17,867 nucleotides of DNA from a virus (Duplodnaviria; Heunggongvirae; Uroviricota; Caudoviricetes), in IMG/VR virus record IMGVR_UViG_3300044294_000233; one strand, given 5' to 3'. Of this stretch, positions 612-17,867 are shown one piece after another. A model generated the notes under the pieces. The model did no database searches, was not told where the DNA came from, and worked only from the letters and a program-made list of their open reading frames with translations. The position numbers were made by a program, and so were the translations under genes. Each line of letters opens with the position of its first letter. Position 1 is the stretch's first letter.

Positions 612-921
612 TCGGTCTGACCTGACTGCCGAGGACGTTGAACTTGGAGCCGCGAAGCTCCTCGGCGACAGCGTCCTCAGCAACTTTTTTGGCGTCGGCC
701 ATATTGTCCGCTTCGACTTCTTTCGTTTTGAACTCGGCTCCGAGTCCACGGTCGTAGCGAACCACCACCTCGAACTTGCAGATATTCTTTTCCGGTAACT
801 TGGTTCCGCACCACGGGCAGTAGATGATGCCGGGGTGGTTGTCGCCGAAATCCCACGCTCCCGGCCCGCCACAGATGTGGGTCACGCCGGTTTCACAACA
901 GAGTTTTACTTTAGTCCCCAT
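601..921 (-). CDS. Small Zn-ribbon-like protein (CC..C..H..CPWC), 106 aa
   Basis: ORF with Cys pairs (LCCETGVTHICGG ... YCPWCGT) typical of a zinc ribbon. Its start overlaps the stop of the upstream minus-strand gene by 16 nt (operon-style). The 11-nt convergent overlap with gene 1..611 is observed. Confidence 0.5.
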   Translation of the reverse strand: MGTKVKLCCETGVTHICGGPGAWDFGDNHPGIIYCPWCGTKLPEKNICKFEVVVRYDRGLGAEFKTKEVEADNMADAKKVAEDAVAEELRGSKFNVLGSQVRPIKA

Positions 922-1448
922 TTTCGTTTCATCTCTTCGAGGAATTGTTCCTTCATCCTTTGGCCGATGGCAACATCGCGTTGGTCGGCGAGGTTGATGT
1001 ATTCGTATTCTTTCTTGCGGGCAACCACTGCCAGTTTTTCGATTTCCATTTCCCAGTCGCCTGGGGCGAACGCCCCAAGTTCACCACTCATCTCATGGTA
1101 CACGATCTCGCCCTTCCACCGCACCCAAATTTCCGGGCCGTCAAACTTGATCTCCAGATGAAGCCCCCGACTGTAGCCGTTAAAGAGGTAGGCGTTCGCG
1201 GCCATGCCCGCATCGGCCGTGGGGATTTCGCCCTCTTCGAGTTCGTCTTCTTCGAGGAAGTTCTGTTCGAGGCCCATCATGTTCTCGAATTCATGGAACA
1301 TGGCACGCCTGCCGCCGCCGTGTCGCCCGTAAACCTTGTCTCCCAACATCCGCGCGACGCACGCGAGCTTGCCCTCGCCGCTCATAAGACCCTTGCGTAC
1401 CGCCTCGACGGTGCGTTGCTCGCGGATGATGTCTTCTTTTGATCGCAT
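906..1448 (-). CDS. Hypothetical protein, 180 aa
   Basis: Long minus-strand ORF with ATG at 1446-1448 and GC3-rich codons. Diverges from gene 1476 across a 27-bp intergenic region. No recognisable domain. Confidence 0.5.
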   Translation of the reverse strand: MRSKEDIIREQRTVEAVRKGLMSGEGKLACVARMLGDKVYGRHGGGRRAMFHEFENMMGLEQNFLEEDELEEGEIPTADAGMAANAYLFNGYSRGLHLEIKFDGPEIWVRWKGEIVYHEMSGELGAFAPGDWEMEIEKLAVVARKKEYEYINLADQRDVAIGQRMKEQFLEEMKRKWGLK

Positions 1449-1456
1449 GATGCGAC

Positions 1457-1490
1457 TATATACCTCGGAGGCACAATGGAAACCAAGAAA
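1457..1490 (+). promoter_or_regulatory. Shared 5' module copy 1: TATATAC, 12 nt including GGAGG, then ATGGAAACCAAGAAA
   Basis: A -10-like TATATA sits 13 nt upstream of the ATG. The 15-nt start of the coding sequence is identical to copy 2 at 4460-4474. Confidence 0.35.
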
Positions 1491-3137
1491 AACCTAGCAG
1501 TGACGCAGACACAGCAGAACAGACGCCCGTATGGTCCGTCTCGCCCGCCAACCCCTACCCCTTCAGAGAGCGTGATCCGCCGTGACGGTGAGATCCGTTT
1601 CTTCATGGACGAGGAGTCAAACACCCCCTTCATCCAAAACGTTCAGGTTCCGACCGAGAACCCGGACCCGCCGTTTTCCGTTCAGAACTACAAGGGTTAT
1701 TCCCCCGATCCGAACTCACCACAGGCGCTCGCGGCCAACTGCATGGCTACGCTCTGCTCGGCCCAAAGGATGTTGAAGAAGTACCTCGGCACGCTCCCGA
1801 AGTGGGCGGCGGTCAAAGTTCTTCGCGTTTACCCGAACGCCGGGAACCAGTTGAACGCCTTCTACAATCGCGAGTCGTTGCAGTTCTTCACGGGCCGGAA
1901 CCCTGTGAACGGGCAGGTGGTCCACACCTGTTTGTCGAACGACGTGGTCACCCACGAATTCTTTCACTCGGTACTTGACTCTTTGAAGCCCGTGCTGTTC
2001 AATACTCCATTCATTGAACAGGGTGCGTTTCACGAAGCGTTCGCCGACTGCGGCTCGATCCTGCATGCGATGTCGATTGACCCGGTTTTGACCTATACTG
2101 CACAGCAGATGGACGCGGCCCAAAGCAGTACCATTGCGTCGTCCGTAGCACCGGATCTGGGCTATGCGATCAACGGGGTGATCGGCGGGCTGCGTGACGC
2201 TTCGGTTCCGTACTACTACATCGATCCGGCCACACTGCCGAGATCTGCGCCGAAGAACCAGTTGTCCAGCGAGGTCCACAGTTTCAGCCGCGTGTTCAGC
2301 AGTGCGTTTTACGCTGCGATCATGGCCGTTTACGCCAAAGTGAAGGCACCGGGCGGTATCGGCACACGCGAAGCACTGATCATCGCACGCGACGAAATGG
2401 CTACGGTTTTGTTCCGTGCGGTACAAAACGCCCCGCTGACTCCGAGGTACATGGCTTCAATTGCGAGTACCATGTTGACAGAACTCGCTACCGGGCCTTA
2501 CGCAACTGAAGTTGCGAGCGTTTTTGCGACGTGGGGGTTGACCACGGTTCGTGCGGCCTCGACCGAAAGCGTCGAGGTTTTGCCGACCGACAAGGCTGTG
2601 AAGATCGGCGATCAGGATTTCTTGATTCGCGAAAAAAGCACTCAGATGGTACTGGCGGATACAATGATTGTCGGTCAGTCTGACAATCCGCTGTACTTCT
2701 GTAAGGTTGATGTCCCGCACGAGCAACTTTTGGTCGCTCAGGGCTTCGGCATGGCGGGGTTCGTAGACGGCGCAGAAGACGAGGAAATTCTCGATGAAGT
2801 TAAACTTGGTCTTGACTATATTTGGGAGTCGGACCTAGTAACCCTTCACGGGGAGCCGGTCAAGGACCACCACGTTTTCAAGGTTGATGAATCAGGCTCG
2901 CTGCTGAGGACCAGCTATAATTCCGACGACGGCTACTTCAACAACGCCACCTTGCCCGGTGCGCCAGAGTTTGGTAAGCCGTGGAAACCAGAAAACAATT
3001 CGGGGTGTTGCTCCGGTTGTAAGAAGAAAGTAGACCCTCCAGTTCGTCCACCGAAACTGGGGTGCTACGTCAACGAACGAGTGTGCGGCTCTCGTACTGT
3101 GCGAAGCTGCCAAGTCGTCCGTCAAAAGGTGTGTTAA
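1476..3137 (+). CDS. M4 thermolysin-family-like zinc metallopeptidase with Pro-rich N-terminus and Cys-rich C-terminal tail, 553 aa
   Basis: RBS GGAGG 4 nt before the ATG. Motifs NAFYNRESLQFFTG, VVTHEFFHSV (HExxH) and EQGAFHEAFADCGS (third-ligand Glu, ExxxD), with EVHSF downstream, parallel thermolysin NAFWNG / VVAHELTH / NEAISD / GGVHIN. No signal peptide visible. C-terminal tail is CCSGCKKK...C...C...C...C. Confidence 0.65.
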   Translation: METKKNLAVTQTQQNRRPYGPSRPPTPTPSESVIRRDGEIRFFMDEESNTPFIQNVQVPTENPDPPFSVQNYKGYSPDPNSPQALAANCMATLCSAQRMLKKYLGTLPKWAAVKVLRVYPNAGNQLNAFYNRESLQFFTGRNPVNGQVVHTCLSNDVVTHEFFHSVLDSLKPVLFNTPFIEQGAFHEAFADCGSILHAMSIDPVLTYTAQQMDAAQSSTIASSVAPDLGYAINGVIGGLRDASVPYYYIDPATLPRSAPKNQLSSEVHSFSRVFSSAFYAAIMAVYAKVKAPGGIGTREALIIARDEMATVLFRAVQNAPLTPRYMASIASTMLTELATGPYATEVASVFATWGLTTVRAASTESVEVLPTDKAVKIGDQDFLIREKSTQMVLADTMIVGQSDNPLYFCKVDVPHEQLLVAQGFGMAGFVDGAEDEEILDEVKLGLDYIWESDLVTLHGEPVKDHHVFKVDESGSLLRTSYNSDDGYFNNATLPGAPEFGKPWKPENNSGCCSGCKKKVDPPVRPPKLGCYVNERVCGSRTVRSCQVVRQKVC

Positions 3138-3157: not shown

Positions 3158-3496
3158 ATGGCAGCTTTCCCAGAAGACGATTACAAGAACCGGAACGCGA
3201 TGTCGTCCGGCGTTCCCGGCGGATTCGGCGGGGGCGTCGATGACGATGATGACTTCGACGGCGACCTAGACGACGATGACGACGACTGGGACGACGACGA
3301 TGATCTCGATGACGATGACGATGACGATGACGACTTCGATGACGAAGACGACGATGACGACTGGGATGATGACGACGACTTCGATGACGAAGACGATGAC
3401 GACCTAGACGACGATGACGACTGGGATGATGACGATGACGATGACGACGACGACGACTTCGATGACGATGACGACGACGATGACGTGAACTTCTGA
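3158..3496 (+). CDS. Extreme poly-aspartate acidic protein (about 80% Asp, aromatic/Leu residue every 6-10 residues), 112 aa
   Basis: ATG 3158 is in frame with track ORF 3062..3496 and is preceded by GAGAGGG 5 nt upstream. Sequence is MAAFPEDDYKNRNAMSSGVPGGFGGGV followed by about 85 aa of D with spaced F/W/L. It lies 20 nt after the peptidase stop on the same strand, and the next gene starts 8 nt after its own stop. Confidence 0.5.
   Translation: MAAFPEDDYKNRNAMSSGVPGGFGGGVDDDDDFDGDLDDDDDDWDDDDDLDDDDDDDDDFDDEDDDDDWDDDDDFDDEDDDDLDDDDDWDDDDDDDDDDDFDDDDDDDDVNF
3230..3490. repeat. Low-complexity GAY-codon (GAC/GAT) tract encoding poly-Asp
   Basis: Near-continuous gacgatgacgac... with interspersed tgg/ttc/cta codons. 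Slippage-prone. Confidence 0.8.
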
Positions 3497-3504
3497 GAGG
3501 CGCA

Positions 3505-4137
3505 ATGATCGCGGCTTTGGAGTTCTACATTCGCAGTACAGATCTTCGTAACAACCTTCCGGTCCCTTGCTCTTTCTGCCTGGAAAGCGAGCGTGGCGAC
3601 CGGAAGGTTGTTACTTTGAACGACGCTTATCGCCACCCCGATCAGATCGCGGTCAGGCAATGGAATCTCACCGAGTGCGAAGACAATCAATCGCTCCCAA
3701 CTATTCAGGAACGGATCATTCCACGCGGCGAGGTTTTTATCAGTGATGCGGTGATCATTCCCAACCACCGGCTTCTCAATTTGGTCAACGGTATCGGCAT
3801 ACCGAGCGGCCTCAATTTCCGAAACAAGCCCATGCCGGCCGATCAGTACACTCGGTTCTACGACAAGCTTCTGTCGATGGAATCTCAACTCTTCATCAAA
3901 GAGACGTGGGTCTGGCGAGAGTTCATCAGGGTTTATTTGCCTTTGATGTACACTCTGATTTACAGCGAGCGGGACGAGTTCGACCGGCTCAGAGAAATCA
4001 TGTCGATGATCCCGACCAACCAGCCGGAATTGTGGCATAAGTGGTTGAGGTGGAAGAAGTACATGCTCGATATGCCGGGCGTTCCGGGCGAAATCCTCTT
4101 CTACAAAGAATACGGGTCCGTCTTCCGCTTCGTGTGA
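3505..4137 (+). CDS. Hypothetical Trp-rich protein, 210 aa
   Basis: RBS GAGAGG 5 nt upstream of the ATG. GC3-biased codon usage like other plus-strand genes. The overlapping minus-strand ORF 3181..4152 looks like an antisense artefact. Confidence 0.55.
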   Translation: MIAALEFYIRSTDLRNNLPVPCSFCLESERGDRKVVTLNDAYRHPDQIAVRQWNLTECEDNQSLPTIQERIIPRGEVFISDAVIIPNHRLLNLVNGIGIPSGLNFRNKPMPADQYTRFYDKLLSMESQLFIKETWVWREFIRVYLPLMYTLIYSERDEFDRLREIMSMIPTNQPELWHKWLRWKKYMLDMPGVPGEILFYKEYGSVFRFV

Positions 4138-4138
4138 C

Positions 4139-4408
4139 TCACGGGTTGACACCCAGTTCTTTGGCCCTATACATGTTCCGTTTTATTAGGTCGCGGTCGT
4201 CGTAGCTCGGTTGTGTGATCTCTCGCGGCGGCTTTTTGCGTTTCTTCTCTTTGCCGAACTGTTCTTCTTTGCCGGGTGGTCTGGCACCTTTGGTGTTGCC
4301 GGCAATGGGTGCGTTCGGTCCCAACATGATTTGGACCGGAGGCGCGGGTGCGGTTCCCCACGAATCGCCCGCCGTCTCTCTCATTTTGACGTACTCGGCG
4401 AAGGTCAT
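4139..4408 (-). CDS. Small basic Gly/Pro/Lys-rich protein, 89 aa (start chosen at internal ATG with RBS)
   Basis: Internal Met54 of track ORF 4139..4567 is preceded by CAGGAGAAACC (GGAG 6 nt upstream). The longer ORF would run into the start of divergent gene 4460. KEKKRKKPPRE basic patch. Confidence 0.45.
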   Translation of the reverse strand: MTFAEYVKMRETAGDSWGTAPAPPVQIMLGPNAPIAGNTKGARPPGKEEQFGKEKKRKKPPREITQPSYDDRDLIKRNMYRAKELGVNP

Positions 4409-4448
4409 TGGTTTCTCCTGAAATCTCCAAAACGTCATTCGTACTAAC

Positions 4449-4474
4449 TTATATACGGCATGGAAACCAAGAAA
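4449..4474 (+). promoter_or_regulatory. Shared 5' module copy 2: TTATATAC-GGC-ATGGAAACCAAGAAA
   Basis: TATATAC sits 4 nt upstream of the ATG with no SD. The 15-nt identity with 1476-1490 is observed directly. Confidence 0.35.
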
Positions 4475-4990
4475 CCCTGGCCCGGCATCATGACGATTCT
4501 TTCTCTCGAACAGGTCCGCGACGGCTGCGTGATCTACCGCGAGGAGAACGTACTCAACACACTCCACTTTCTGGGCGAGCAGTTCCTTTTGAACGCCCTG
4601 TTCCTGGGCGGCAACGCGCCGAACACATACATCCCCAACAACTACTACTTGGGGTTGGACAACAGGACGATTCTGGCAATTGGCGATACGATGGAGAGCT
4701 TGCAGAACGAGCCGTTCATCAACGGGTATTCACGTCAGCCGGTCAATTCTACGACCGGCTTCTCGATGACGGTTTCGGGCGGGGTGCATCAGGTGTCGAG
4801 TCAGATCGTGACCTTCTCGGCGGTCGGCGGGAGTTGGGGACCGTGCAGCAACATCTTCTTGTCAGATAAACCAAACACGACGGGCGTATTGATCAGCAGC
4901 GCGAAGCTGACGAATCCGGTAACGGTTCAGTCTGGGGACTCGGTGAACATGCGGATGGGCATGTCACTTCGGTACTGCCCCGCCAGTTGA
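4460..4990 (+). CDS. Hypothetical protein, 176 aa, begins METKK like gene 1476
   Basis: Good GC3 codon bias over the whole ORF. No SD; TATATAC lies only 4 nt upstream, so possibly a leaderless or short-leader mRNA. The first 15 nt are identical to the first 15 nt of gene 1476. Confidence 0.55.
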   Translation: METKKPWPGIMTILSLEQVRDGCVIYREENVLNTLHFLGEQFLLNALFLGGNAPNTYIPNNYYLGLDNRTILAIGDTMESLQNEPFINGYSRQPVNSTTGFSMTVSGGVHQVSSQIVTFSAVGGSWGPCSNIFLSDKPNTTGVLISSAKLTNPVTVQSGDSVNMRMGMSLRYCPAS

Positions 4991-5408
4991 CGGAGTCCCA
5001 GAAATACTCCCAGTCCCGAATCTCGACGTAGTGAAGCACCTTGCTCTTTTTGCCGTTGGGGGCTTCGACCACTTGGAGTTGTTTGAACTTGAGCCAGCCC
5101 ATCCCCTCTTTGTTTCCCAGTCTCTTGTAATCCGGCGTTTCCTCGTCGTCGGGCTTCGGTTGCGTCAGGTTGATCCTGTAGCCGCTCGGCGTAACGGCAA
5201 CCATCAGGGTCTTCGGTTCGTTGGTGACCGTGTACTGACAGAACACTTCTCGCGCCGGTGCCGATCCCTTGTTGTCATCGAACCACACCGGGATGCTGAT
5301 GCCGATAGCCGCAACTTGCTGGCGTTCCTCTACCAGAGTTTTTCGCTGCTCCGGGGTCAGATAGATGACGTGGTTGACGATCAACAGCTTTTCTTTCTGC
5401 TCGAACAT
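4893..5408 (-). CDS. Hypothetical protein, 171 aa, co-transcribed downstream of the nuclease (possible recombination partner)
   Basis: Strong RBS GGAGGA 6 nt upstream of ATG 5408. Stop of upstream gene is at 5412. Its 3' end overlaps convergent gene 4460..4990 by 98 nt. Confidence 0.6.
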   Translation of the reverse strand: MFEQKEKLLIVNHVIYLTPEQRKTLVEERQQVAAIGISIPVWFDDNKGSAPAREVFCQYTVTNEPKTLMVAVTPSGYRINLTQPKPDDEETPDYKRLGNKEGMGWLKFKQLQVVEAPNGKKSKVLHYVEIRDWEYFWDSVNWRGSTEVTCPSACSPSPQTEPLPDSSASRC

Positions 5409-6232: not shown

Positions 6233-6260
6233 ATTATACCCTTTGATTCGGATTAGTCAT
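6233..6260 (-). promoter_or_regulatory. Sigma70-like promoter (-10 TATAAT, -35 ATGACT, 16-bp spacer) for the nuclease operon, overlapping the divergent primase start codon
   Basis: Minus strand reads ATGACT-N16-TATAAT, then 17 nt to ATG 6215 containing GGAGG. The perfect -10 hexamer is the reverse complement of 6233-6238. Confidence 0.4.
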
Positions 6261-7293: not shown

Positions 7294-7646
7294 AAGAAGC
7301 TCTCGAAAACCTCAAATACTTTGTCGGCAAGGCCGTCAGCATCTTCACCGGACCCATCAACCGCGACTTTGACGAGCGACAGAAGTGCGACTACTTCGTC
7401 GGGATCGTCAAGTCGGTCGATTCGATGGGAATTATGACGCAGCACCCCATTACGGGCTGCTGCAACTACTATTTCTACAGCCAGATCGTCGGCATCGCCG
7501 AAGAACAGATTCTGGATTCTGCCAATCCCGAACACGCCACGGTCATTGCCGAAATCGAAGCAAAACGGCGGATGGCTACTACGCCCCCGCCGTCGAATAA
7601 TTTGGTCGATGTCAATGCCTTGTCCAAACTGGCCGGACTCCATTAA
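7290..7646 (+). CDS. Hypothetical protein, 118 aa, translationally coupled to primase
   Basis: ATGA start/stop overlap with the primase gene at 7290-7293. Consistent codon usage. No recognisable domain. Confidence 0.5.
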   Translation: MKEALENLKYFVGKAVSIFTGPINRDFDERQKCDYFVGIVKSVDSMGIMTQHPITGCCNYYFYSQIVGIAEEQILDSANPEHATVIAEIEAKRRMATTPPPSNNLVDVNALSKLAGLH

Positions 7647-9331
7647 GACTCGCGATAGATCCTTTCCGACACCGCCCTCATCTTCTGTTTGAAACCCGAC
7701 ACACCTTCGCCGAAGTGCTTTTTGACCTCTTCGTCATCGTCTTCATAGGTTTTCTTCTTTTTCTTCTCGCTGGACATTGCTTGGATGTCTTTGTACTTAC
7801 CGGCCTCAATCAACTTCAAGAATTTTCTCCTTAAAGTCTTGCTATCGGATATGTGATCCCATGTGTCCATCAGCTTTTTCACCAGTTCACGATCCGTCTT
7901 GACAACCTTTTCAATTTTGGAGGCGAACTCTTCGTATTGGGGTTCGTAGAGCCGTTGTTGGACAGCAGCCGTTTCTGGATTGTCTTCAAAATTGTCGCTT
8001 TTATCGTGGGACGAAAGTGCTTTCAAGTCATCGAAGTCCGACCGCTTTTCGGTGTCCTTTGGGTTTTCATCGGACATATTGTGAATCTCGGCGCGGTCGC
8101 CAACCTCTGGCTTTTCGTCTTCCGAACGATGACCCTCTTCTTTGTCTTTTCTGAGAAGTCTTGCAATTCGTTTCGTAACCTTGTCTTCGGTATCGTCCGG
8201 TCGTTCGACACGACCAGCTAGATCCAACTGATTGAAAAATTCGGGATAGTATTTGCTGAGGATCTCGTGCCTCGGATCATCAATTCGCAATACTTTTGGC
8301 AAAGTAAACGGACCACTTTGGCTGCGGTTAGTTATCCGCTTGCCGTTGTTTCCGCGATTGTTATGCAGATTCTTTCGTTTGCCAAGTTTGTTCCACGGCT
8401 CGTGTATCGCTCGGAGAATCTCCTGTTCTCTGGTGTTCAGACCACTCCATGCGTCACCCTTCTTTTTCTTCTGCCTGAAAAGCTCCAAGTATCTGTTAGT
8501 CGCAGCGTGGATTTCTTTCAGTGGGTATTTGTCTTCAGCCGTGTCATTTTTCGGACAATGTCCAGAACGACAAGCACCAATAATAAGTCTTTTCTTGGAA
8601 TCATCGAGTTTTCCGAAGATACCAAAAGTGGTTCTGGTGTCTTTGAATATGCCAAATTTTTCAGCCTGCTTATCGAGAGTCAGTTCGGGTTTTTCGGCCG
8701 GTTTTAGCGGGGCTGTACTGCCGTCGTCTCCCTCATCATCGGCGGCAGACCCAGGCACGAAATCGTCATCATGCACAGTCGGCGTTCTTGGTTCCGGCGT
8801 CGGCTCCGGTGTCGGACGAGGCTTTTCGGGTGCTGGTGTACTGCCCACACGAGTTGCCATACTGCGAACGCGATTCATCATGTCGTCCAAACTGGACGCG
8901 ATGGTCTGACGGAGTCTGGCGGTCCAGTTGTTTAGGATCTTTCGGATCAGTGGTTGTGGTGCTGCGGAGGCGTCTTCCCACAGGGTGTCCGCGAGGTTTT
9001 TGAGCATCGCGTATTCGCGGACGGTGGGCGGTTCGAGGTCGGTGCGGCCGAGTGCGCCGATCTTGTTTTGCCAGTAGTACGGGTTGGAACGACGGTCGCT
9101 ACCGAACAGGTTCTTCCACCAGTTGTGAACGCGGGTAAAGAACCCTCGCTTGGAAGGCAGCTTGTCGTTCATGATCTGCGTTTGCAAATCGTTGACGAGT
9201 CCGACGACCTTCTGGTCCAGATTTCTTCTGACGGAAGCCAGTTGCTGGTAAAGAGCTTCTAGTTCGGAGGCGAAGTCCTTGCTCCCCTCGAAAAAGCTCA
9301 GTTGTTCGTACAAATCGATTGTTCTCAGCAT
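7643..9331 (-). CDS. Large hypothetical protein, 562 aa, with Pro-rich linker and K/E/D-rich C-terminal half encoded by an AT-rich segment
   Basis: Long ORF. Start ATG 9329-9331 is preceded by AGGGGGA. PTPEPTPEPRTPT linker. C-terminal half is low-complexity charged. 3' end overlaps convergent gene 7290..7646 by 4 nt. Confidence 0.65.
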   Translation of the reverse strand: MLRTIDLYEQLSFFEGSKDFASELEALYQQLASVRRNLDQKVVGLVNDLQTQIMNDKLPSKRGFFTRVHNWWKNLFGSDRRSNPYYWQNKIGALGRTDLEPPTVREYAMLKNLADTLWEDASAAPQPLIRKILNNWTARLRQTIASSLDDMMNRVRSMATRVGSTPAPEKPRPTPEPTPEPRTPTVHDDDFVPGSAADDEGDDGSTAPLKPAEKPELTLDKQAEKFGIFKDTRTTFGIFGKLDDSKKRLIIGACRSGHCPKNDTAEDKYPLKEIHAATNRYLELFRQKKKKGDAWSGLNTREQEILRAIHEPWNKLGKRKNLHNNRGNNGKRITNRSQSGPFTLPKVLRIDDPRHEILSKYYPEFFNQLDLAGRVERPDDTEDKVTKRIARLLRKDKEEGHRSEDEKPEVGDRAEIHNMSDENPKDTEKRSDFDDLKALSSHDKSDNFEDNPETAAVQQRLYEPQYEEFASKIEKVVKTDRELVKKLMDTWDHISDSKTLRRKFLKLIEAGKYKDIQAMSSEKKKKKTYEDDDEEVKKHFGEGVSGFKQKMRAVSERIYRES

Positions 9332-9341
9332 AATCCCCCTG

Positions 9342-9370
9342 ATTATTTAGAGGGGCTGAACCAATTTCAA
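9342..9370 (-). promoter_or_regulatory. Sigma70-like promoter (-35 TTGAAA, 17-bp spacer, -10 AATAAT) for the 7643..9331 gene; predicted very short leader
   Basis: Minus strand reads TTGAAA-N17-AATAAT-cagggggatt-ATG. The -10 ends only 10 nt from the ATG. Confidence 0.35.
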
Positions 9371-10733: not shown

Positions 10734-11744
10734 TTACTTTCGGGTTGACGCCTCGGCAGCGAGCAGACACCCACGAGCAACACTGTACAAGGTGTCCTGC
10801 GGACGGATCACTTCGCTCACCTTGATCGGCAGCTTGGCGTCGTCCAGAACAGTCTTGAACATTTCCACGAAACCGGGCGGCGAACTGGTCCCACCGGAAA
10901 CAACGATGTCGAACGGGTCGTCCGTCCTTACGACTTTGCTGTTCTTGTTCAGGCCGTTTTTGATTTCGGATACGCAGTGTTCGATCATCAGCCGGTACTG
11001 GCTGATGATCGCCCGTTCGATGAGGTCACCGGGAGCTTTCGAGAGATCGATCTTCATCTTCTGTTTGTTGATGAAGGTCGGCGACTCGGCAGTGGCTCGC
11101 GCCGCCTGCTTGTCGATCCAGTCTCCGCTGTTGACGATTGCGAAAGAGAAGACGGGGTTGCCGAACATGGCCATACACAGGTTGACCATACCGGCCCCGA
11201 AGCTGATCCCGATTCCCGTGTACGCCTTCTTCGACAGTTCGGCGTAAACGAGGGCGAGGGCTTCGTTAATCGGGTGCGGATCGACTCGCATTCCGTCCTT
11301 GTTCCTGAAGGCTTTGAAGATGCCTTCGAGCGTCAGGCGGTGGAAGTTCGCGTCCGTTTCGACGTTGATTGCGTTGGCCGGGACGCAGAAGTAGAGAGGC
11401 TCCTTGTCCTCCTTCACCGTCTCGATCAGCGAGTGGATCATGATGCTCAAGATCTGGTAGGCTTCCTTTTCCTTCGGGTTCACGCACCCGTCCGACATCG
11501 GCCGCTTCAACTCCATCGAGTTGATCGCGTAGGCCATCTTGACCGCCGACTCGCCGAGGGCGTAAGCCAACTTGTCCCTCTTGATCAGCGGGACACCAGC
11601 GTTATTCATCATGTTGTAGACGAAGTCGTTTTCGAGAGGAATCTCGATAAATGCGTTGACTTCGCGCTTGTGAACGAAGTTTCCCTTTTCGTCACGCTTG
11701 GAGCATACGAGGTTGTATGTGCCAACGTCAAATCCGATTGCCAT
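10734..11744 (-). CDS. Actin-fold ATPase (ParM/MreB/FtsA-like), 336 aa
   Basis: Phosphate-1 MAIGFDVGTYNLV. Phosphate-2 GIGISFGAGMVNL. Adenosine motif DIVVSGGTSSPPGF. C-terminal YSVARGCLLAA, like MreB ...CVARGTG. Start taken at Met21, which is preceded by AAAGGGTGA; the track start at 11804 has no RBS. Confidence 0.7.
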   Translation of the reverse strand: MAIGFDVGTYNLVCSKRDEKGNFVHKREVNAFIEIPLENDFVYNMMNNAGVPLIKRDKLAYALGESAVKMAYAINSMELKRPMSDGCVNPKEKEAYQILSIMIHSLIETVKEDKEPLYFCVPANAINVETDANFHRLTLEGIFKAFRNKDGMRVDPHPINEALALVYAELSKKAYTGIGISFGAGMVNLCMAMFGNPVFSFAIVNSGDWIDKQAARATAESPTFINKQKMKIDLSKAPGDLIERAIISQYRLMIEHCVSEIKNGLNKNSKVVRTDDPFDIVVSGGTSSPPGFVEMFKTVLDDAKLPIKVSEVIRPQDTLYSVARGCLLAAEASTRK

Positions 11745-11778: not shown

Positions 11779-12033
11779 TCACTTGTCGTACTTTCCGAAT
11801 TCAATCGTTTCGGTGGATGGTGTGAACTCAGGTATCATCCACTCTGCTGCCTCTGCGGGCTTCGGTGCCATCTGCTTTTGCTCAGGCACCTGATCCGCAC
11901 TCGCTACCGACGCCACAGACATTCCCACCACACCGCCACCAAGATTCAGATTCAGGTCGATTACCAACCTGACCGTTATCTCTCCGTCGCGGGTCGTGAT
12001 GTTCACGTTCTGTGGTTTGATAACTTGAGGCAT
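11779..12033 (-). CDS. Small hypothetical protein, 84 aa, immediately upstream of actin-like gene
   Basis: ORF with weak RBS-like AGGTAA. Plausible codon usage. Position is analogous to an adaptor or regulator gene of a segregation module, but no motif was recognised. Confidence 0.4.
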   Translation of the reverse strand: MPQVIKPQNVNITTRDGEITVRLVIDLNLNLGGGVVGMSVASVASADQVPEQKQMAPKPAEAAEWMIPEFTPSTETIEFGKYDK

Positions 12034-12075
12034 GAGCTATTTACCTAAGTCCGGCGTATTTTAATCGAGTATCTC

Positions 12076-13053
12076 TCATTCGATTTGTGGCTTGTACGGC
12101 CACTTCGCCATCATTTTTTCTATACCGTCCATCACCATGTCGGACGTGATCTCGCTCGCACACGGCTTGATCGTTTTCTTGCACTCTTTTTTGCACATCG
12201 ACCAGTTGAAGCACGGGCCGCAATCCCAGTTGCTGTCGTCCCTGTGCTTTTGAACGAGTACGAAGTCGAAATACTTTCCGTACACTTTTCCGTCGCAGTA
12301 GGTAAAAATTCCCACCAGCGGTTTCTTCAGCCCGCCCGCGCAGTGGAACGCCGACGTGTCAACGCTCAAGACGTAGTCGGCCGCGTCCAGTGCCGTTATC
12401 CACTGTCGCGTGTTCAAGCCGCTCAAGGTTCGGCACCCGATCTGATCGAGGTGTGGCATGGACTTGTTGTGCAGACAAACGACGTTGCACCCCTTCTGCC
12501 AAACTCGCGTGACGACTTCCGTCTGTAGTGCCGGCGACATGTCCTTGCCGATCTGAGCCGACGCGGGACACATTGCCAAGATCGGAGCGTTCGGACTCGA
12601 TACGCTGCGTTGCAGAAGTTGACGGGCGGCTTTCTTCTCTTCGGCCGTTACGCCGAGATACATTTCGTGCTTGCCAATTACCACGCCACAGTGGTTGGCC
12701 CAGATGTCGCTGCGGTGCTTGTCGGCTCTGGGTGCGATGGCGTTCTCGTACCGGCCGCACGCGAAGGTGATGTTGTAGACGAGGGTGAAGTCGGCTTTGT
12801 TGACGGTGCGGCAGTCAACCACTTCGTCAACAAATGGATGTCTCGCGGCGGCTTCCAAGTATTGTTGGGGGACGGCCCAGGTGATGTGACATTCGGGCAT
12901 CACACGTTTGAAGCTCTCGAACATCATCCTTTGCATCAGGATGTCGCCGAGGCCACCAACGTCGCGAACGACCAGCACCCTATCACGTCGCTCGTAGTAA
13001 TCTCTAAGACCCCACGCCGGCGCTTTTGAAGGTGTCTTTCTCTTGATCTTCAT
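12076..13053 (-). CDS. Glycosyltransferase family 9-like (heptosyltransferase-like) protein with Cys-rich C-terminal tail, 325 aa
   Basis: N-terminal RVLVVRDVGGLGDILMQ resembles the GT9 N-terminus (R..lGDvi). LSVDTSAFHCAGGLKKPLVGIFT matches the GT9 C-terminal motif (DSGpmHLAaAlgtPvvalFG). Tail is WDCGPCFNWSMCKKECKKTIKPC. Confidence 0.6.
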   Translation of the reverse strand: MKIKRKTPSKAPAWGLRDYYERRDRVLVVRDVGGLGDILMQRMMFESFKRVMPECHITWAVPQQYLEAAARHPFVDEVVDCRTVNKADFTLVYNITFACGRYENAIAPRADKHRSDIWANHCGVVIGKHEMYLGVTAEEKKAARQLLQRSVSSPNAPILAMCPASAQIGKDMSPALQTEVVTRVWQKGCNVVCLHNKSMPHLDQIGCRTLSGLNTRQWITALDAADYVLSVDTSAFHCAGGLKKPLVGIFTYCDGKVYGKYFDFVLVQKHRDDSNWDCGPCFNWSMCKKECKKTIKPCASEITSDMVMDGIEKMMAKWPYKPQIE

Positions 13054-13073
13054 GACTATAGTTTAGTGCCTTC

Positions 13074-13105
13074 AAACGAAAAAGCCCGACATTGCTGTCG
13101 GGCTT
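13074..13105 (-). terminator. Rho-independent terminator: 8-bp GC-rich stem (GCCCGACA / TGTCGGGC), 4-nt loop, then TTTTTCGTTT on the minus strand
   Basis: Read directly. Lies 54 nt downstream of the stop of gene 13157..13735. Confidence 0.75.
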
Positions 13106-13156: not shown

Positions 13157-13735
13157 TCAGCTTGTCGGGGTGCTGCGGATCGTGAGGATGACCTGCACGG
13201 TTGCCGTGGTCGCGCCGGAAGCGGTGTTGTTGAACTCCAAGCGGCTGATGACGGCATCGCCGATGTTGAAGGTCTTGGTTTCGTTCGCCGAGAGGTCGAA
13301 GATGGCCGTCGAAAGACCGTTCATCTTCACGCGGATCGCCTGACCACTCGTGTTCTCGATGCTCGCCGAAACAGCCGCCGCGCCGTTGTCGCCCGTTACA
13401 TCGATCACGTTCGATGCGTACACAGAACCGCCAGCGATGGTCAGGTCGTAAACACGAGGGAAGGTGTTCTCAGCCGGGTCACTGGAGTAAATGCTGCCGT
13501 CGTCGGTCACGACTTCGATGAACGCCTTTTCCAGAGTCGTCTGCGGGTACGCGAACTGCTTCCAATAGTTGCAGTCCGTGAAGGTTTCACCGTCGAAAAG
13601 TTGACGGTAAGTCTTGTTCGGGCCGGTGACCCACATCGTCCGCTGAATCGACGGCGACATCTGTGCGCCAGTGGACGGGTTAAGGTCCAATACGCCCTGC
13701 TGAGTGTTGTTCAGCTTTACACGAAATACGCTCAT
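13157..13735 (-). CDS. Hypothetical small protein, 192 aa, candidate abundant virion structural protein
   Basis: Start at Met19 of track ORF, preceded by AAGGAGAACA (AGGAG 5 nt upstream). Followed by a strong intrinsic terminator, a layout typical of highly expressed structural genes. Ser/Thr/Asn-rich. Confidence 0.55.
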   Translation of the reverse strand: MSVFRVKLNNTQQGVLDLNPSTGAQMSPSIQRTMWVTGPNKTYRQLFDGETFTDCNYWKQFAYPQTTLEKAFIEVVTDDGSIYSSDPAENTFPRVYDLTIAGGSVYASNVIDVTGDNGAAAVSASIENTSGQAIRVKMNGLSTAIFDLSANETKTFNIGDAVISRLEFNNTASGATTATVQVILTIRSTPTS

Positions 13736-13789
13736 TGTTCTCCTTGATGGGGTGCCTAATCCCTGTCTTCTGTCTATATGTAGAAGCAC

Positions 13790-14404: not shown

Positions 14405-14624
14405 GTCGGACTCCAATCTGATCAAAGAAACGATGGACGATTTCTTCAGTAATTTTGGCGCGGCCGATGACCCGCATGCGAAATTACTCATTCAAATGGT
14501 GCTGGCCGAGGCTCTGCGTCCTGGCAACAAAAACAACAATCGATTTTGGGTGAAGTGCGATGCGAATGTTGAGAAATGTCCCGTCGTGCCGCATACAATA
14601 GTTCATGGGAAAACCGTGGTCTGA
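14403..14624 (+). CDS. Small hypothetical ORF, 73 aa, at the left edge of the AT-rich homing-endonuclease island
   Basis: AT-shifted codon usage like the HE gene. Its end overlaps the HE start by 20 nt. It is in the same frame (coordinate mod 3 = 0) as ORF 15462..15821. Weak call. Confidence 0.3.
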   Translation: MSDSNLIKETMDDFFSNFGAADDPHAKLLIQMVLAEALRPGNKNNNRFWVKCDANVEKCPVVPHTIVHGKTVV

Positions 14625-15465
14625 ATCCGAGTTGGAATTACTTCGTCAGCTTGGGCCGTCAAAACATTCGACTGAATTAATTGATTGCTTGCCGGGCCAT
14701 ACTGCACCTGCCATTGCCAAGATGAGGAACAGAATCGGCGTAGTTATTACGGCTGAGTGTCGTTCTAGGTCTGGCGAAAAGGCCGCTCGGTTTCGCAATG
14801 GCTGCAAACTCGACCAAAACCTTTCCTTGTCTGATTTTGACGACTGCGTTTTTCAGGTACTGATCGGCAGTATGTTGGGCGATGGTTGTGTGACCAAAAG
14901 CGACGACTGCAAAAACTACTTCTTCTGCGAAGGACATGGTTCCAAACAGACTGATTACCTCGAATGGAAAATGAACATCCTGTCGCCTTTCATGTCGCGA
15001 TGGAATTCAAACAAAAAGACGCACATTTCTACGGCCCGTCATCCGATATTTACTTCATTGAGAGATCGATTCTACAAGGCCAGGAAAAACTGCGACAAAA
15101 GCATAATTCCAGTAGACTTGATTTCCAAGCTGAATTTTTTCGGGTTGATGATTTGGTACATGGACGATGGCTACCTGGGGACTACCAGAACCGGCCGTCT
15201 TAGCAATGGACTCAAAAAATCGCCACAACCTTCAATATCAGCCAAAGGATGGGATCGTATCGACTTGGAGAACGCGGTGTCCATTTTGAATCAAAACTTA
15301 GATCTATCAATGTACATCAAGTATTACAAACACAGAAATGGTCAGAACAAGTTAGTTATGCTTGGCAAAAGCAGAGACTTCTTGCTGTCTAAATGGAAGA
15401 CAATTTCACAAGAACGTAAACTGCCGGCTTGTATGTCGTACAAGCTAGAATGCGAGGTTTGATGA
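14405..15465 (+). mobile_element. AT-rich island carrying the homing endonuclease gene (free-standing HEG or intron-like insertion)
   Basis: Local drop in GC and codon bias against a high-GC background, coinciding with the HE ORF and the small upstream ORF. Confidence 0.4.
14605..15462 (+). CDS. LAGLIDADG homing endonuclease (two-motif, monomeric type) with N-terminal Myb/HTH-like extension, 285 aa
   Basis: Two LAGLIDADG motifs: VLIGSMLGDGCV and FFGLMIWYMDDGYL. N-terminal WSESELELLRQL resembles a Myb/SANT-like helix. Codons are markedly more A/T-ending than surrounding genes. A stop lies immediately upstream in frame. Confidence 0.8.
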   Translation: MGKPWSESELELLRQLGPSKHSTELIDCLPGHTAPAIAKMRNRIGVVITAECRSRSGEKAARFRNGCKLDQNLSLSDFDDCVFQVLIGSMLGDGCVTKSDDCKNYFFCEGHGSKQTDYLEWKMNILSPFMSRWNSNKKTHISTARHPIFTSLRDRFYKARKNCDKSIIPVDLISKLNFFGLMIWYMDDGYLGTTRTGRLSNGLKKSPQPSISAKGWDRIDLENAVSILNQNLDLSMYIKYYKHRNGQNKLVMLGKSRDFLLSKWKTISQERKLPACMSYKLECEV

Positions 15466-15821
15466 GTCGTTGTTACCTGTATCTGGCGCGGCGGGACAAA
15501 ATGGGGGCCAGAGTGGTCACGGTGCTGGACGGCCCGCAGCGACCGCCAATCCGACTCGTTGATCTGGAATCTCTGAAACTGCCCCCGACGATTCATGCGA
15601 GTGTCGAGAAGATCATTTACGACAATCGCATGTATTGGGAGCCGTGGATCGAGTCGGCCGAACACTACCAAGAGTTGAGGAAGAAACTACACGCCAGGGG
15701 TTTTCAAGGGCTGTATCCGAGTTGCAAACCCTTGTTCGACGGCACCTCTTTCTTGCTGCCGCCGAAGGCCGACCTGAAGAAGCACCCGAAGAAGAAGACG
15801 ATGTTGACGAGGAAGTCTTAG
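15462..15821 (+). CDS. Hypothetical protein, 119 aa, Lys-rich C-terminus; start overlaps HE stop (TGATG)
   Basis: Start at Met12 of track ORF 15429..15821, so it does not overlap the HE body. Codon usage back to the GC-rich style. Confidence 0.4.
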   Translation: MSRCYLYLARRDKMGARVVTVLDGPQRPPIRLVDLESLKLPPTIHASVEKIIYDNRMYWEPWIESAEHYQELRKKLHARGFQGLYPSCKPLFDGTSFLLPPKADLKKHPKKKTMLTRKS

Positions 15822-16093
15822 CGGACGCTTTTCCGGTTGGTGTAGAACGTGCCTGCCCCCGCGTCGATCAACAGGTGGTCCCCGTCTTGACTGATCACAG
15901 TTCCGCCCTTGCGGTAGAACTGCCTTACGGACTCGTACAGGTCGCCCTGATCGGACTCCGCGACCTGTAACAGCTTCTTGGGCGACAACGCCGAAGACAC
16001 TCTCTTGCCTTCGAGGTTCTTGGACCCGGCGTCCTGGCCTTCGATCCACTTTCTGAAATCGCTAAGTGACAATGGGTGTTTACCCTTTTCCAT
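15818..16093 (-). CDS. Hypothetical protein, 91 aa
   Basis: ORF starting 5 nt after the stop of upstream gene 16098..16937. GGAG lies just upstream, though the spacing is short. Ends with a 4-nt convergent overlap with gene 15462..15821. Confidence 0.45.
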   Translation of the reverse strand: MEKGKHPLSLSDFRKWIEGQDAGSKNLEGKRVSSALSPKKLLQVAESDQGDLYESVRQFYRKGGTVISQDGDHLLIDAGAGTFYTNRKSVR

Positions 16094-16097
16094 ACTC

Positions 16098-16937
16098 CTA
16101 CTTTCCCTGGAAGAAACGGCTCAAATCCTCCAGGGGTATATACGTTGCAACCTTCAACTTCGGGCCGACCGAGTGCTGTACCGTCTTGCAGCCGTTGTTT
16201 TGAGACAGCCAATACAGATTGCCGTCGATCAGTTTGTTTGCGGTCAGGTGCTGTGGATAGTACCACTTCCCGTCCTCACTCTGCTCGCTGCCCTGCCTCT
16301 GCTCATCGAACGCTTCGTCGCAGAAAGCCAGAGCCAGCTTCTGAACCCCGAACTTGTGCAGAAGGTTGATGGCGGCACAAACCGGGTTGCGGTAGTCATC
16401 GATCTTGTACTTACAGTCCCTGTTCTCGACCCCGCAGTACCATGCGTCACTCGACGGACAGTACCTGTACTTCATTCCGGTGTAGCCCTTCAAGAACTCG
16501 CTGTTCGCGCGAGTCGAAGCGATACACTTGGTCGTCGTTGACCTCGGTAGATAGCTCTGAGCTTCCGAATAAGGGTTGTTGACGACGTAGAAATTGGGAC
16601 TTCTTTTTGTCGATTTCCATTTGGACAAACTCCCGTTGACCGCGAAGATCAACACGTCCTTCGGCAAGGCCGCGATTTGCTCGTGACCCGACTCGAAGTC
16701 GAAGCCGTCCGAAACGATTACCGCCTTGTTGACGCTCAAATTCTCCGTGTCGATCCACGGGTACTTGGCCCGCATCGACCACTGCTCGTTCTTGAGGATC
16801 AGCGGGTAGTCGGCGGTTGACAAAAGTCGGTTGATGTCTTTGTACGGAACCCCGCTGACGCCGGGGTTCCGTACCCACAAGTCGTCTCCGACGTGCAGGT
16901 ACTGGTTCTTGTTCGCGTGTTTTTTCAGTCTGTACAC
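16098..16937 (-). CDS. Hypothetical protein, 279 aa; tentative resemblance to DUF115 / MptE-like (Maf-like) putative transferase family
   Basis: GTG start with GGAGGTAAG immediately upstream. Segment KAVIVSDGFDFES...LIFAVNGS loosely matches the aivvgsGPS ... iifavN signature of that family. The family assignment is low-confidence. Confidence 0.5.
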   Translation of the reverse strand: MYRLKKHANKNQYLHVGDDLWVRNPGVSGVPYKDINRLLSTADYPLILKNEQWSMRAKYPWIDTENLSVNKAVIVSDGFDFESGHEQIAALPKDVLIFAVNGSLSKWKSTKRSPNFYVVNNPYSEAQSYLPRSTTTKCIASTRANSEFLKGYTGMKYRYCPSSDAWYCGVENRDCKYKIDDYRNPVCAAINLLHKFGVQKLALAFCDEAFDEQRQGSEQSEDGKWYYPQHLTANKLIDGNLYWLSQNNGCKTVQHSVGPKLKVATYIPLEDLSRFFQGK

Positions 16938-16938
16938 C

Positions 16939-17867
16939 TTACCTCCTACACGGTACGAATCTGACGCACTGGCCCTCGCCCTCGTCGTCGCTGAGTAGTT
17001 TGCTCATGTCGAGTTCGACCTTGTGCGTGATCGGGTCGCCACGGTACACCATTTCCACTTCCGGCTTCTCTGGCAGGACCAAGTGGATCGCGGTCGGGAC
17101 GTTGCTGACCAAGTGGATCGCGGTCGGCGCACCCACCAGTTGGATCGATTCAGGTACGCCCACCAACTCCATCATCAGCTTCCTCGGCACGTCCTCGGCC
17201 ATTCGCAATTCGATGAACTCAGGTACGTCCTTGTTCTTCAAGAAAATGAATTCCGGTACGTTAGTCGCCCTCAGTTCAAAGAACTCAGGCAGGTTGTGTT
17301 TCAAAGAGATCTCGTTCGGAATCGGCGTCTCGGCCTTGATTTCGATGTAGGTCGGCAACGTGGTTCCGCGAACCTCGATGAACATTGGCAGATCGTGTAC
17401 CAGTCTCATGTCCGGTATTTCCGGCACCACGACCTTGATCTCGGACGGGATGCCGATGTCTTGCGCGGTTACCAGCGGAGGGTCCGACTGGAAGCTGTCA
17501 ACGAAGCTCTCCTCGAACCCGCCCGACATCATCGCCATCGGCGTCACCGACGTACTTCCGCAACTGACCGTGACCACGCAACTCAGAACCGGCACCGGGT
17601 TCCAGTTCACGTCGATTACCGTGGGGACGTTCGCGTTGTATGCGAAGATTGAAGTCGGGATGTTGATGTTGTACCCCAAGATCGAAGTCGGGATATTGAC
17701 GTTGTATGCCAAGATCGAAGTCGGGATATTGACGTTGTACGCCAAGATCGAAGTCGGGATGTCAACGTTGTACGCCAAGATCGAGGTCGGGAAAGACCCG
17801 TAGACGTTGATCGAGGTCGGGAAAGATCCGTAGACGTTAATCGTTGTCGGGATGTTCGCGTAAACAT
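16939..17867 (-). CDS. Tandem-repeat protein (11-aa repeats (A/G)YN(V/I)NIPTSIL, then degenerate 11-12 aa xPEFIELRxxx repeats), 5' end beyond window; probable fiber or beta-solenoid structural protein
   Basis: The frame stays open to the window edge. The track Met at 17778 is internal. At least eight 11-aa repeats are visible (VYGSFPTSIN, AYNVDIPTSIL, AYNVNIPTSIL, ...). Its stop is 1 nt before the start of the next gene. Confidence 0.6.
   Translation of the reverse strand, partial: VYANIPTTINVYGSFPTSINVYGSFPTSILAYNVDIPTSILAYNVNIPTSILAYNVNIPTSILGYNINIPTSIFAYNANVPTVIDVNWNPVPVLSCVVTVSCGSTSVTPMAMMSGGFEESFVDSFQSDPPLVTAQDIGIPSEIKVVVPEIPDMRLVHDLPMFIEVRGTTLPTYIEIKAETPIPNEISLKHNLPEFFELRATNVPEFIFLKNKDVPEFIELRMAEDVPRKLMMELVGVPESIQLVGAPTAIHLVSNVPTAIHLVLPEKPEVEMVYRGDPITHKVELDMSKLLSDDEGEGQCVRFVPCRR
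17635..17867. repeat. 33-bp (and 30-bp) tandem DNA repeats, at least 7 units, coding for the 11-aa protein repeats
   Basis: Units such as gttgtatgccaagatcgaagtcgggatattgac recur head-to-tail with a few substitutions. They continue to the window edge. Confidence 0.8.

Follow-up and report, generated by a model that had tools for sequence, protein, structure and literature searches.

A directional TA[N]ATA hexamer close to start codons in a clade of huge phages and its possible role as a −35-less promoter core

Introduction

To our knowledge, there is no experimental knowledge of how transcription is organised in uncultivated huge phages (476–595 kb for those considered here), and the closest described systems come from other phages and from bacteria. 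Bidirectional bacterial promoters can arise from symmetry of the −10 element, where a TAnnnTA heptamer is used by sigma-70 and the two starts are about 18 bp apart. Late promoters of phage T4 depend on gp55, together with the co-activator gp33 and the sliding clamp gp45, and the variants of their core include (A/T)ATAAATA. The T4 core TATAAATA occupies −13 to −6; in phage Aeh1 the variant CTAAATA begins from −12 (PMC1524935). The early promoter of phage AR9 reads AAATATATATTAT-6N-G+1 and gives 5′ untranslated regions of 26–491 nt (PMC5312081). In Deinococcus-Thermus, one class of genes has a −10 box a few bp ahead of the open reading frame (ORF) and is leaderless, and another class has GGAG (PMC12340547). 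Here we analyse a 17,867-nt stretch of DNA from a tailed phage (IMG/VR record IMGVR_UViG_3300044294_000233; the whole stretch is called the window), in which the hexamer TATATA stands just upstream of two plus-strand genes starting at 1476 and 4460. These sites belong to a directional family of hexamers, (A/C)TA[N]ATA, which is conserved among related huge phages and frequently stands 4–5 nt before an ATG without a Shine–Dalgarno (SD) sequence. We suggest that the hexamer is probably the core of a promoter, related in principle to the late promoters of T4.

Results

Two copies of TATATA at the heads of divergent gene pairs

The original prediction had pointed to genes 1476 and 4460 because they share their first 15 nt, carry TATATAC just upstream and lie back-to-back with minus-strand genes, and these observations are all confirmed. 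The sequence ATGGAAACCAAGAAA occurs at exactly two sites in the window, and TATATAC, with five copies in the window against 0.13 expected, lies at 1457–1463, 12 nt ahead of ATG 1476, and at 4450–4456, 3 nt ahead of ATG 4460. The head-to-head spacers are 27 nt long at copy 1 (1449–1475, between a 180-aa gene and an M36-like peptidase gene) and 51 nt long at copy 2 (4409–4459). The features of the two sites are as follows.

906–1448, minus strand: 180-aa gene without SD; TATATA is 8 nt upstream of its ATG (4–5 nt in relatives)
1457–1462, both strands: copy 1 hexamer TATATA, palindromic, in the spacer of the 180-aa gene and the peptidase gene
1467–1471, plus strand: SD sequence GGAGG of gene 1476, beginning 4 nt past the hexamer; (A)GGAGG in relatives
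1476–1490, plus strand: shared 15-mer, copy 1, codons 1–5 (METKK) of the peptidase gene
1476–3137, plus strand: peptidase gene, 553 aa, HExxH motif; more distant homologues carry the fungalysin/M36 domain PF02128
4139–4408, minus strand: 89-aa gene (MTFAEY...), divergent from gene 4460; alternative in-frame ATG at 4436–4438
4450–4455, both strands: copy 2 hexamer TATATA, 4 nt before ATG 4460, which has no SD
4460–4474, plus strand: shared 15-mer, copy 2, codons 1–5 (METKK) of the Gp80-like (fibre-like) gene 4460–4990

Both ATGs are the earliest possible start codon in their ORF, and the annotated starts are taken as real because protein conservation among the homologues of both genes sets in at residues 2–7. 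The product of gene 4460 matches Pfam Gp80, a podophage fibre protein, at 4.6e-8. A usable −35 element was not found at either copy.

The window comes from a huge phage, since proteins identical to its own lie on a 475,914-bp contig of the Joint Genome Institute (JGI). Some 26 kb of the phage can be read, namely the window and ~8.5 kb added leftward, and the contigs stop at the right edge. The leftward 8.5 kb has genes for the large terminase and for a T4-type portal that contains an intein. Among the other genes are those for an actin resembling volactin, a primase, a LAGLIDADG endonuclease, a nuclease of the PD-(D/E)XK type and a glycosyltransferase of family 9. Assemblies made independently from other samples differ from the window by 1 mismatch in 3.3 kb and by 0 mismatches in 13.1 kb, and because the same sequence recurs in them an assembly artefact is ruled out. 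For comparison we used syntenic loci with ~87% protein identity (L009, L010) or 50–67% (L002, L011, L013–L017), together with LR756511.1, the complete genome of an uncultured phage (595,163 bp, 42% GC), which stood in for the genome-wide tests and whose proteins are 53% (terminase), 60% (volactin-like) and 30% (peptidase) identical to those of the window phage. The window had no megablast match among GenBank phages, and Rfam and tRNA scans of it were both empty. In the search for a host, neither a scan with the volactin-like protein nor an exact 51-mer from L011 gave a match in genome contigs.

At copy 1, the layout CAT-N4-8-TA[T/C]ATA-N5-8-(A)GGAGG-N4-6-start is shared by the window, L009, L011, L014, L015, L016 and L017, and TATATA is also present at the copy 1 site of LR756511. 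At copy 2, where the hexamer is in addition 41 nt upstream of the minus-strand gene and that gene has an AGGAG SD, the orthologous sites carry TAGATA (L013, L014, L016) or TATCTA (L011) 4–5 nt before the ATG, and TATATAC is confined to the window lineage. The final C of TATATAC, which the original prediction had counted in the element, is not conserved. In several relatives the divergent start codons at copy 2 are only 15–22 nt apart, for example CAT-ATGC-TAGATA-GTGGC-ATG in L016.

A directional hexamer family and its spacing from start codons

The word TATATA represents a wider, directional group of hexamers, (A/C)TA[N]ATA. When 6-mers were ranked by enrichment within 45 nt ahead of called starts, the top ones were TATAGA, TATATA, TATCTA, TAAATA, TAGATA and TACATA together with SD words, all enriched 12–23x, with AGGAGG comparable. 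In the window phage, 7–8 of 14 TA[N]ATA sites are intergenic, where intergenic sequence makes up 4.3%. Across ten loci TATATA is found 11 times in intergenic and 4 times in coding sequence, and no other A/T-only hexamer there is distributed in this way (TTTTTT, for instance, 1 versus 86).

The hexamer is retained at orthologous sites whose flanks have diverged (window, L009/L010, L011, L013–L017 and LR756511), that is, in at least eight related huge phages with 27–87% protein identity. Conserved sites include copy 1, copy 2, the spacer between the portal gene and a 202-aa gene, and the orthologues of genes 11779–12033, 7643–9331 and 13157–13735. In head-to-head spacers of 15–30 nt, it is the sole TA-rich word conserved among relatives.

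Distances to the start codon fall into two groups in the window clade, with a peak at 4–5 nt (17 cases, with ATG starts in the gene calls) and a second cluster at 12–19 nt, in which an SD lies between hexamer and start. An SD core is missing in 18 of the 20 genes whose hexamer is ≤8 nt from the start, versus 63 of 165 others. The same relation appears over the genome of LR756511, in which TA[N]ATA precedes the ATG of ORFs of at least 80 codons at 4 nt in 27 cases and at 5 nt in 36, on a background of about 4 per position; the total is 63 ORFs versus about 8 expected. No such peak was found in LR756511 for the reverse complements (TATCTA, TATGTA), TATAAT, other A/T hexamers or TANNNT, the profile of the last being flat with 3-nt periodicity only. 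When hexamers of this genome were ranked de novo by positional preference, the list consisted mainly of SD variants plus TAAATA and TAGATA. Alignment of the 63 sites showed A or C at −1 (81%) and, in the search for a −35 element or TGn, nothing conserved upstream of −1; TAAATA was the commonest variant (29/63).

The sites also have a distinct place in the gene order. Of 67 genes with a hexamer at 4–5 nt, 33 stand at the head of a divergent pair, versus 111 of 528 SD genes (odds ratio 3.6, p = 2.6e-6), and three adjacent-hexamer sites come ≤20 nt after perfect intrinsic terminators. The palindromic variant TATATA is found 13 times at divergent and 4 times at co-directional positions, versus 20 and 30 for the other variants. 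The hexamer is also conserved 12–50 nt ahead of genes with an SD of their own, cases at 28–50 nt included. It precedes the homologue of the Gp80 fibre-like protein, the portal, the terminase and a homologue of a head–tail adaptor, and most of the genes that it precedes are unannotated. The nuclease and primase genes have TATAAT in place of the hexamer, conserved at the nuclease gene.

The fixed distance is of practical use in placing start codons. Calls of the Gp80-like gene (L011 10001, L016 6095, L010 1131) are 8–13 codons too far upstream or 10 too far downstream, and the rule hexamer-N4-5-ATG picks the conserved ME(T)KK start where these automatic calls miss it.

Sigma factors encoded by a syntenic relative

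Two gp55-like proteins are encoded by LR756511. One of them was detected at E 3.3e-8 with a profile of eight diverse gp55 sequences, which was needed because a search with the T4 gp55 sequence alone had no match below E 0.01, and both match PHROG 234 'late sigma transcription factor' (2.9e-7 and 1.7e-4). The same genome also has members of the sigma-70 family. One is a region-2 protein of 333 aa, with family members in many huge-phage contigs; another is encoded by a frameshifted gene with regions 2 and 4. The 333-aa family was considered as a gp55 relative and rejected (hhalign probability 0.04%). The region 2+4 gene, at ~190.4–191.4 kb on the plus strand (reverse-strand 403738–404711), lies in two overlapping frames, either through an assembly error or through a real frameshift. 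The multisubunit-polymerase motifs DFDGD and NADFDG are absent from six-frame ORFs of at least 60 aa of LR756511.

The 15-nt identity of the two gene starts

A common prefix of 15 nt is an outlier among the 496 pairs formed by 32 gene starts of the window phage, the runner-up being 10 nt, and 1e-4 to 8e-4 such pairs are expected under position-specific or codon-specific nulls; over a genome of at least 476 kb, about 0.1–0.4 chance pairs are expected. A third site was not found in the window at ≤2 mismatches (0.07 expected), nor was a further copy in the ~26 kb of the window phage or the related loci. The composite TATATAC-N(1-20)-ATGGAAACCAAGAAA had 0 matches in viral contigs and 4 in metagenome contigs, these in unrelated contexts and about the number estimated for chance. 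In the ~87% relative, 15 of 15 nt are kept at gene 1 (the peptidase gene, L009) and 14 of 15 at gene 2 (the Gp80-like gene, L010), where a G-to-T change is non-synonymous, and the exact pair is seen in the window phage only. The proteins of the two genes have no similarity past residue 5. The original prediction, which had joined TATATAC and the 15-mer in one element, is not borne out in this respect.

Comparison of homologous starts suggests how the identity may have come about. METKK appears to be ancestral in gene 2, most of whose close homologues begin with variants of ME(T)(K)KDW[PH]G. In gene 1, METKK is seen in the window phage and the ~87% relative only; homologues with 61–67% identity begin MRSKKKN, MKSVKKN, VPTSKKN, MSDEKN and similar, and codons 2–3 differ in relatives with about 50–67% protein identity. 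Because the start of gene 1 reads AAGAAAAACC in L013 and TCCAAGAAGAAG in L002, AAG AAA (AAC) is ancestral in this gene too, with codons 2–3 (GAA ACC) alone the new part in the window lineage. In this reading the 15-mer combines two ancestral sequences, METKK of gene 2 and (S/T)KKN of gene 1, with a change of gene 1 codons 2–3 that is specific to the lineage and could have arisen by chance on A-rich, lysine-rich 5′ ends or by a short (6-nt) gene-conversion patch. The identity is therefore probably incidental and lineage-specific, and not part of the hexamer element.

Further sites in the window and neighbouring genes

Beyond the two copies, the window holds the following sites, the last of which is listed for contrast.

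9344–9349, minus strand: TAAATA, short-leader class, 12 nt before the ATG of the 562-aa gene 7643–9331, with an SD between
12038–12043, minus strand: TAAATA, copy 2 class, 4 nt from the ATG of gene 11779–12033 (84 aa), without SD
13051–13066, minus strand: CTAAACTATAGTC plus ATG, without SD, ahead of the glycosyltransferase gene 12076–13053
13777–13782, minus strand: TACATA, long leader with SD, 41 nt upstream of the 192-aa gene 13157–13735; overlaps CATATAGAC
16137–16142, minus strand: TATATA in the palindrome GTATATAC (16136–16143), inside the 3′ end of gene 16098–16937
6233–6238, minus strand: canonical TATAAT with ATGACT 16 nt upstream, at the PD-(D/E)XK nuclease gene, sigma-70-type

The 84-aa gene has TA[N]ATA-N4-5-ATG in seven phages, with TAGATA, TACATA or TATATA in the relatives, and the orthologues of the 562-aa gene show the hexamer, then an SD, then the ATG. 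The TATATA at 16137–16142, 43 nt ahead of gene 15818–16093, may be an internal promoter. Two weaker motifs of the original prediction both concern the minus strand and stand in part. TATAGTcATG is present at 13051–13060, as had been stated for gene 12076–13053, but its TATAGT varies among relatives, and it is CTAAACTA that is invariant in five of them; CTAAACTATAGTC is 12 nt past the intrinsic terminator 13079–13103, giving the order terminator, motif, ATG. The motif proposed for gene 13157–13735 does exist within TACATATAGAC (13772–13782). Its distance from the start is 41 nt, and the word that matters there is TACATA. Most relatives covering the site have TA[C/G]ATA followed by a 41–45 nt leader with a conserved AGACAG.

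About half of the 63 adjacent-hexamer genes of LR756511 encode small proteins of the pattern M-x-x-F-x-E (MKTFAE, MLNFKE and similar), which may form a large paralogous family. The 89-aa protein of the window (MTFAEY) and its orthologues (MITFHEY, MISFSEY) match this pattern. In the 89-aa gene (4406–4438, minus strand), a second ATG 10 codons upstream would give MTFWRFQEKP-MTFAEY..., with MTF repeated, and the SD serves the downstream ATG. The convergent genes 4460–4990 (plus) and 4893–5408 (minus) have a 98-nt 3′ overlap, and overlaps of 46–98 nt are called in L010, L011, L013, L014 and L016. Downstream of the peptidase gene, 3158–3496 (plus) encodes an extremely acidic protein from irregular 9–15-nt GAY-rich repeats, with about 100 mostly Asp residues; a similar acidic tail is found in relatives upstream of a 210-aa gene. 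Inside gene 3505–4137 there is an inverted repeat with perfect 17-nt arms and a loop of 33 nt (3548–3564 / 3598–3614).

In the remainder of the region, 10734–11744 (minus) encodes an actin homologue (Pfam Volactin PF25216, 4.6e-69; without PHROG family), whose synteny is kept in every relative covering the region, LR756511 included (60% identity). The free-standing LAGLIDADG homing endonuclease gene 14605–15462 (plus) lies in a low-GC patch (0.43), is missing there in all relatives examined and is preceded by TACAAT-N5-ATG without SD. Tandem repeats of 33 nt at 17621–17792 (and 17077–17127) encode AYNVNIPTSIL-type peptides at the N-terminus of the gene in ORF 16939–17778 (minus), whose true start is uncertain and on which gene callers disagree. 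The portal gene at 98–2656 of L001 and its orthologues in L009, L013–L015 and L017 are Portal_T4 genes, with an intein-splicing domain where annotated.

Discussion

The conserved hexamer is, with fair probability, a clade-wide, −35-less promoter core read with a phage sigma factor, and would produce leaderless or short-leader mRNAs. Among the readings offered by the original prediction, that of a phage-specific promoter like the T4 late TATAAATA is supported by the conservation of (A/C)TA[N]ATA and by its 4–5 nt spacing to SD-less ATGs; the promoter role, the start position, the identity of the sigma factor and the timing in infection are inferences. The reader of the core would most likely be host RNA polymerase with a phage gp55-like sigma factor, and transcription would start about 5–6 nt downstream of the hexamer. 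If the last A of the core is at −6, a 5-nt spacer places +1 on the A of the ATG. At copy 2, +1 would be on or next to the A of ATG 4460 and would give a leaderless mRNA of the fibre-like gene; the fixed spacing and the SD-less ATG agree with the earlier view that this copy is essentially leaderless. At copy 1, the peptidase mRNA may start at or just before GGAGG, leaving a leader of 8–10 nt, and the same hexamer on the opposite strand would give the 180-aa gene a leader of 0–3 nt. Since the palindrome would serve both strands, TATATA may form a compact bidirectional promoter in spacers too short for anything else. TATAAT at replication genes and the hexamer at late genes would fit a T4-like split. 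A further-reaching reading is more tentative: it is possible that these 0.5-Mb phages express around a tenth of their genes without leaders from a 6-bp core for a gp55-like sigma, and that TATATA acts in both directions in spacers down to 15–30 bp, where two leaderless genes would have a single 6-bp promoter in common.

Several observations weigh against a promoter of this kind. In L013 and L002 the copy 1 spacers are longer and the hexamer is displaced or imperfect, and the 8-nt spacing to the 180-aa gene in the window departs from the 4–5 nt of relatives. The predicted copy 1 start falls inside or at the edge of GGAGG. Compared with the T4 8-mer, the window copies read ACTATATA and CTTATATA, which agree at 5 of 8 (copy 1) and 6 of 8 (copy 2) positions. 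The gp55-like genes are those of LR756511, the window phage being readable over about 26 kb only, and in single-sequence phmmer searches of LR756511 (E ≤ 1) T4 gp45 and gp44 had no match; gp46 and gp47 do match. Few adjacent-hexamer genes could be annotated as structural. In addition, the hexamer-to-ATG distance (4–5 nt) is nearly equal to that of an SD (5–7 nt), the identity of the two 15-nt starts is improbable within the window alone (about 1e-4 to 1e-3) and a non-random origin of it is possible, and both words, promoter and leaderless, are drawn from geometry.

The main rival to the promoter core is a translational role, because the hexamer sits about where an SD would. In this explanation it is a translation-initiation signal that substitutes for the SD, for example as an A/U-rich site recognised by ribosomal protein S1 or by a factor of the phage. 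Such a role is possible for the adjacent class because its distance from the ATG about equals that of an SD; hexamer and SD are, moreover, almost mutually exclusive, and translation-related genes, in some cases with non-canonical ribosome-binding sites, have been reported in huge phages (PMC7162821). A ribosomal signal would not, however, account for conservation of the hexamer 12–50 nt upstream of genes with their own SD, for the enrichment of adjacent sites at heads of divergent pairs and right after terminators, or for the preference for the palindrome at divergent junctions, and the likeness to T4-type late promoters together with the gp55-like genes of a relative also speaks for transcription; we consider the translational explanation unlikely. 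An ordinary −10 box of the host sigma-70, giving leaderless mRNAs as in Deinococcus-Thermus or Actinobacteria with no phage sigma, has precedents in −10-adjacent leaderless genes beside a GGAG class (PMC12340547), and the window does contain the canonical TATAAT of the nuclease gene and, on the minus strand of copy 1, a partial match with sigma-70 geometry (TTTCCA-16-TATAGT-6-ATG). But TANNNT and TATAAT have no positional peak before starts in LR756511, the motif ends in TA and lacks the critical −7 T, a spacing of 4–5 nt is too short for sigma-70 (6–7 nt), and TTGACA-(16-18)-TATAAT-like pairs show no enrichment in the window (12 against 8.1 expected), neither plus-strand copy qualifying as one, which together make a host −10 box very doubtful. 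An archaeal TATA box, prompted by the Volactin match, was rejected, as the hexamer is 4–19 nt and not ~25 nt from most starts; bacterial-type intrinsic terminators, strong SDs and the start of gene 4460, fixed by protein conservation, oppose it as well.

The remaining alternatives concern the shared 15-mer. A minor possibility, compatible with the promoter core, is that it was left by a short patch of gene conversion or recombination between the two promoter-proximal sites, 3 kb apart, and is without function. Synonymous positions are identical, both sites can be written as TATATAC...GGC...ATGGAAACCAAGAAA with two gaps allowed, and gene 2 and gene 1 are a plausible donor and recipient because METKK is ancestral in the former and derived in the latter. 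Yet change is needed only in codons 2–3 (6 nt), a single tract over hexamer and start is excluded because the spacers differ and copy 1 retains its ancestral spacer together with the SD, and the 14/15 match in the ~87% relative shows no ongoing homogenisation. Selection of ATGGAAACCAAGAAA as a 5′ end from which co-expressed genes are efficiently translated with short leaders or none is likewise quite unlikely. TATATAC and the 15-mer might, alternatively, be one unit, namely a regulator site spanning the start, a 5′ translation enhancer, or a METKK targeting peptide, roles which the original prediction had raised and for none of which evidence was found; the enhancer would be common to co-regulated genes, and the peptide might instead serve in processing. 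The rarity of such an identity in the window (1e-4 to 8e-4) would suit a single unit, as would the convergence of the two sites in the window lineage (TAGATA to TATATAC at copy 2, GAA ACC in codons 2–3 of gene 1) and the frequency of ATGGAA starts among adjacent-hexamer genes of LR756511. The two copies are nevertheless not one module because their spacers differ (12 versus 3 nt) and one of them holds an SD. Gene 1 METKK is limited to the window phage and the ~87% relative, AAGAAA is independently ancestral in both genes, the proteins part after residue 5, no other copy is found in ~26 kb or related loci, collection scans gave four matches only, in unrelated contexts, and the chance expectation genome-wide is about 0.1–0.4 pairs; we hold a single unit to be highly improbable.

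Our results may help to read transcription from the genomes of uncultivated phages. A conserved directional hexamer at a fixed distance from start codons offers a testable promoter model, makes it possible to predict transcription units and likely leaderless genes straight from metagenomic sequence, and corrects start-codon calls, several of which are off by 8–13 codons in relatives. If the promoter core is real, the principle of the T4 late promoter extends to leaderless and bidirectional use, and the gp55-like sigmas are obvious targets for biochemistry.

Compared with known systems, the clade shares with Deinococcus-Thermus (PMC12340547) a −10-like hexamer near the ATG or a GGAG, and its adjacent-hexamer genes are SD-less with ATG starts, whereas the bacterial box is TANNNT, used by the host sigma at sigma-70 spacing, and that of the clade is TA[N]ATA at 4–5 nt. 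Promoters of the phiKZ/AR9 type are likewise A/T-rich cores of jumbo phages, contain TATATA and start ~6 nt downstream; they differ in being 13 nt long and in being read by phage-encoded multisubunit RNA polymerases, where no DFDGD motif is found in LR756511. Like bidirectional bacterial promoters, the clade has one short symmetric A/T element between divergent start points, but a 6-bp TAnnTA with divergent start codons down to 15–16 nt apart.

The closest likeness is to T4 late promoters, which likewise have a short A/T core ending in ATA, no −35 element and A or C before TAAATA. Phages of the clade have a T4-type portal and terminase, gp55-like proteins occur in the syntenic relative, and the 4–5 nt spacing to SD-less ATGs would fit the −13 to −6 geometry. 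The clade differs from T4 in its free third position (T, G, C or A, with TATATA in the window copies), in a core that often abuts the start codon, for which a leaderless mRNA or a start at the SD is predicted, and in a palindromic variant that seems to serve both strands. We are not aware of a description of a core abutting the start codon in T4-like phages. What is new here is a probable −35-less promoter core of T4 late type placed directly against start codons, with a palindromic form that is probably bidirectional.

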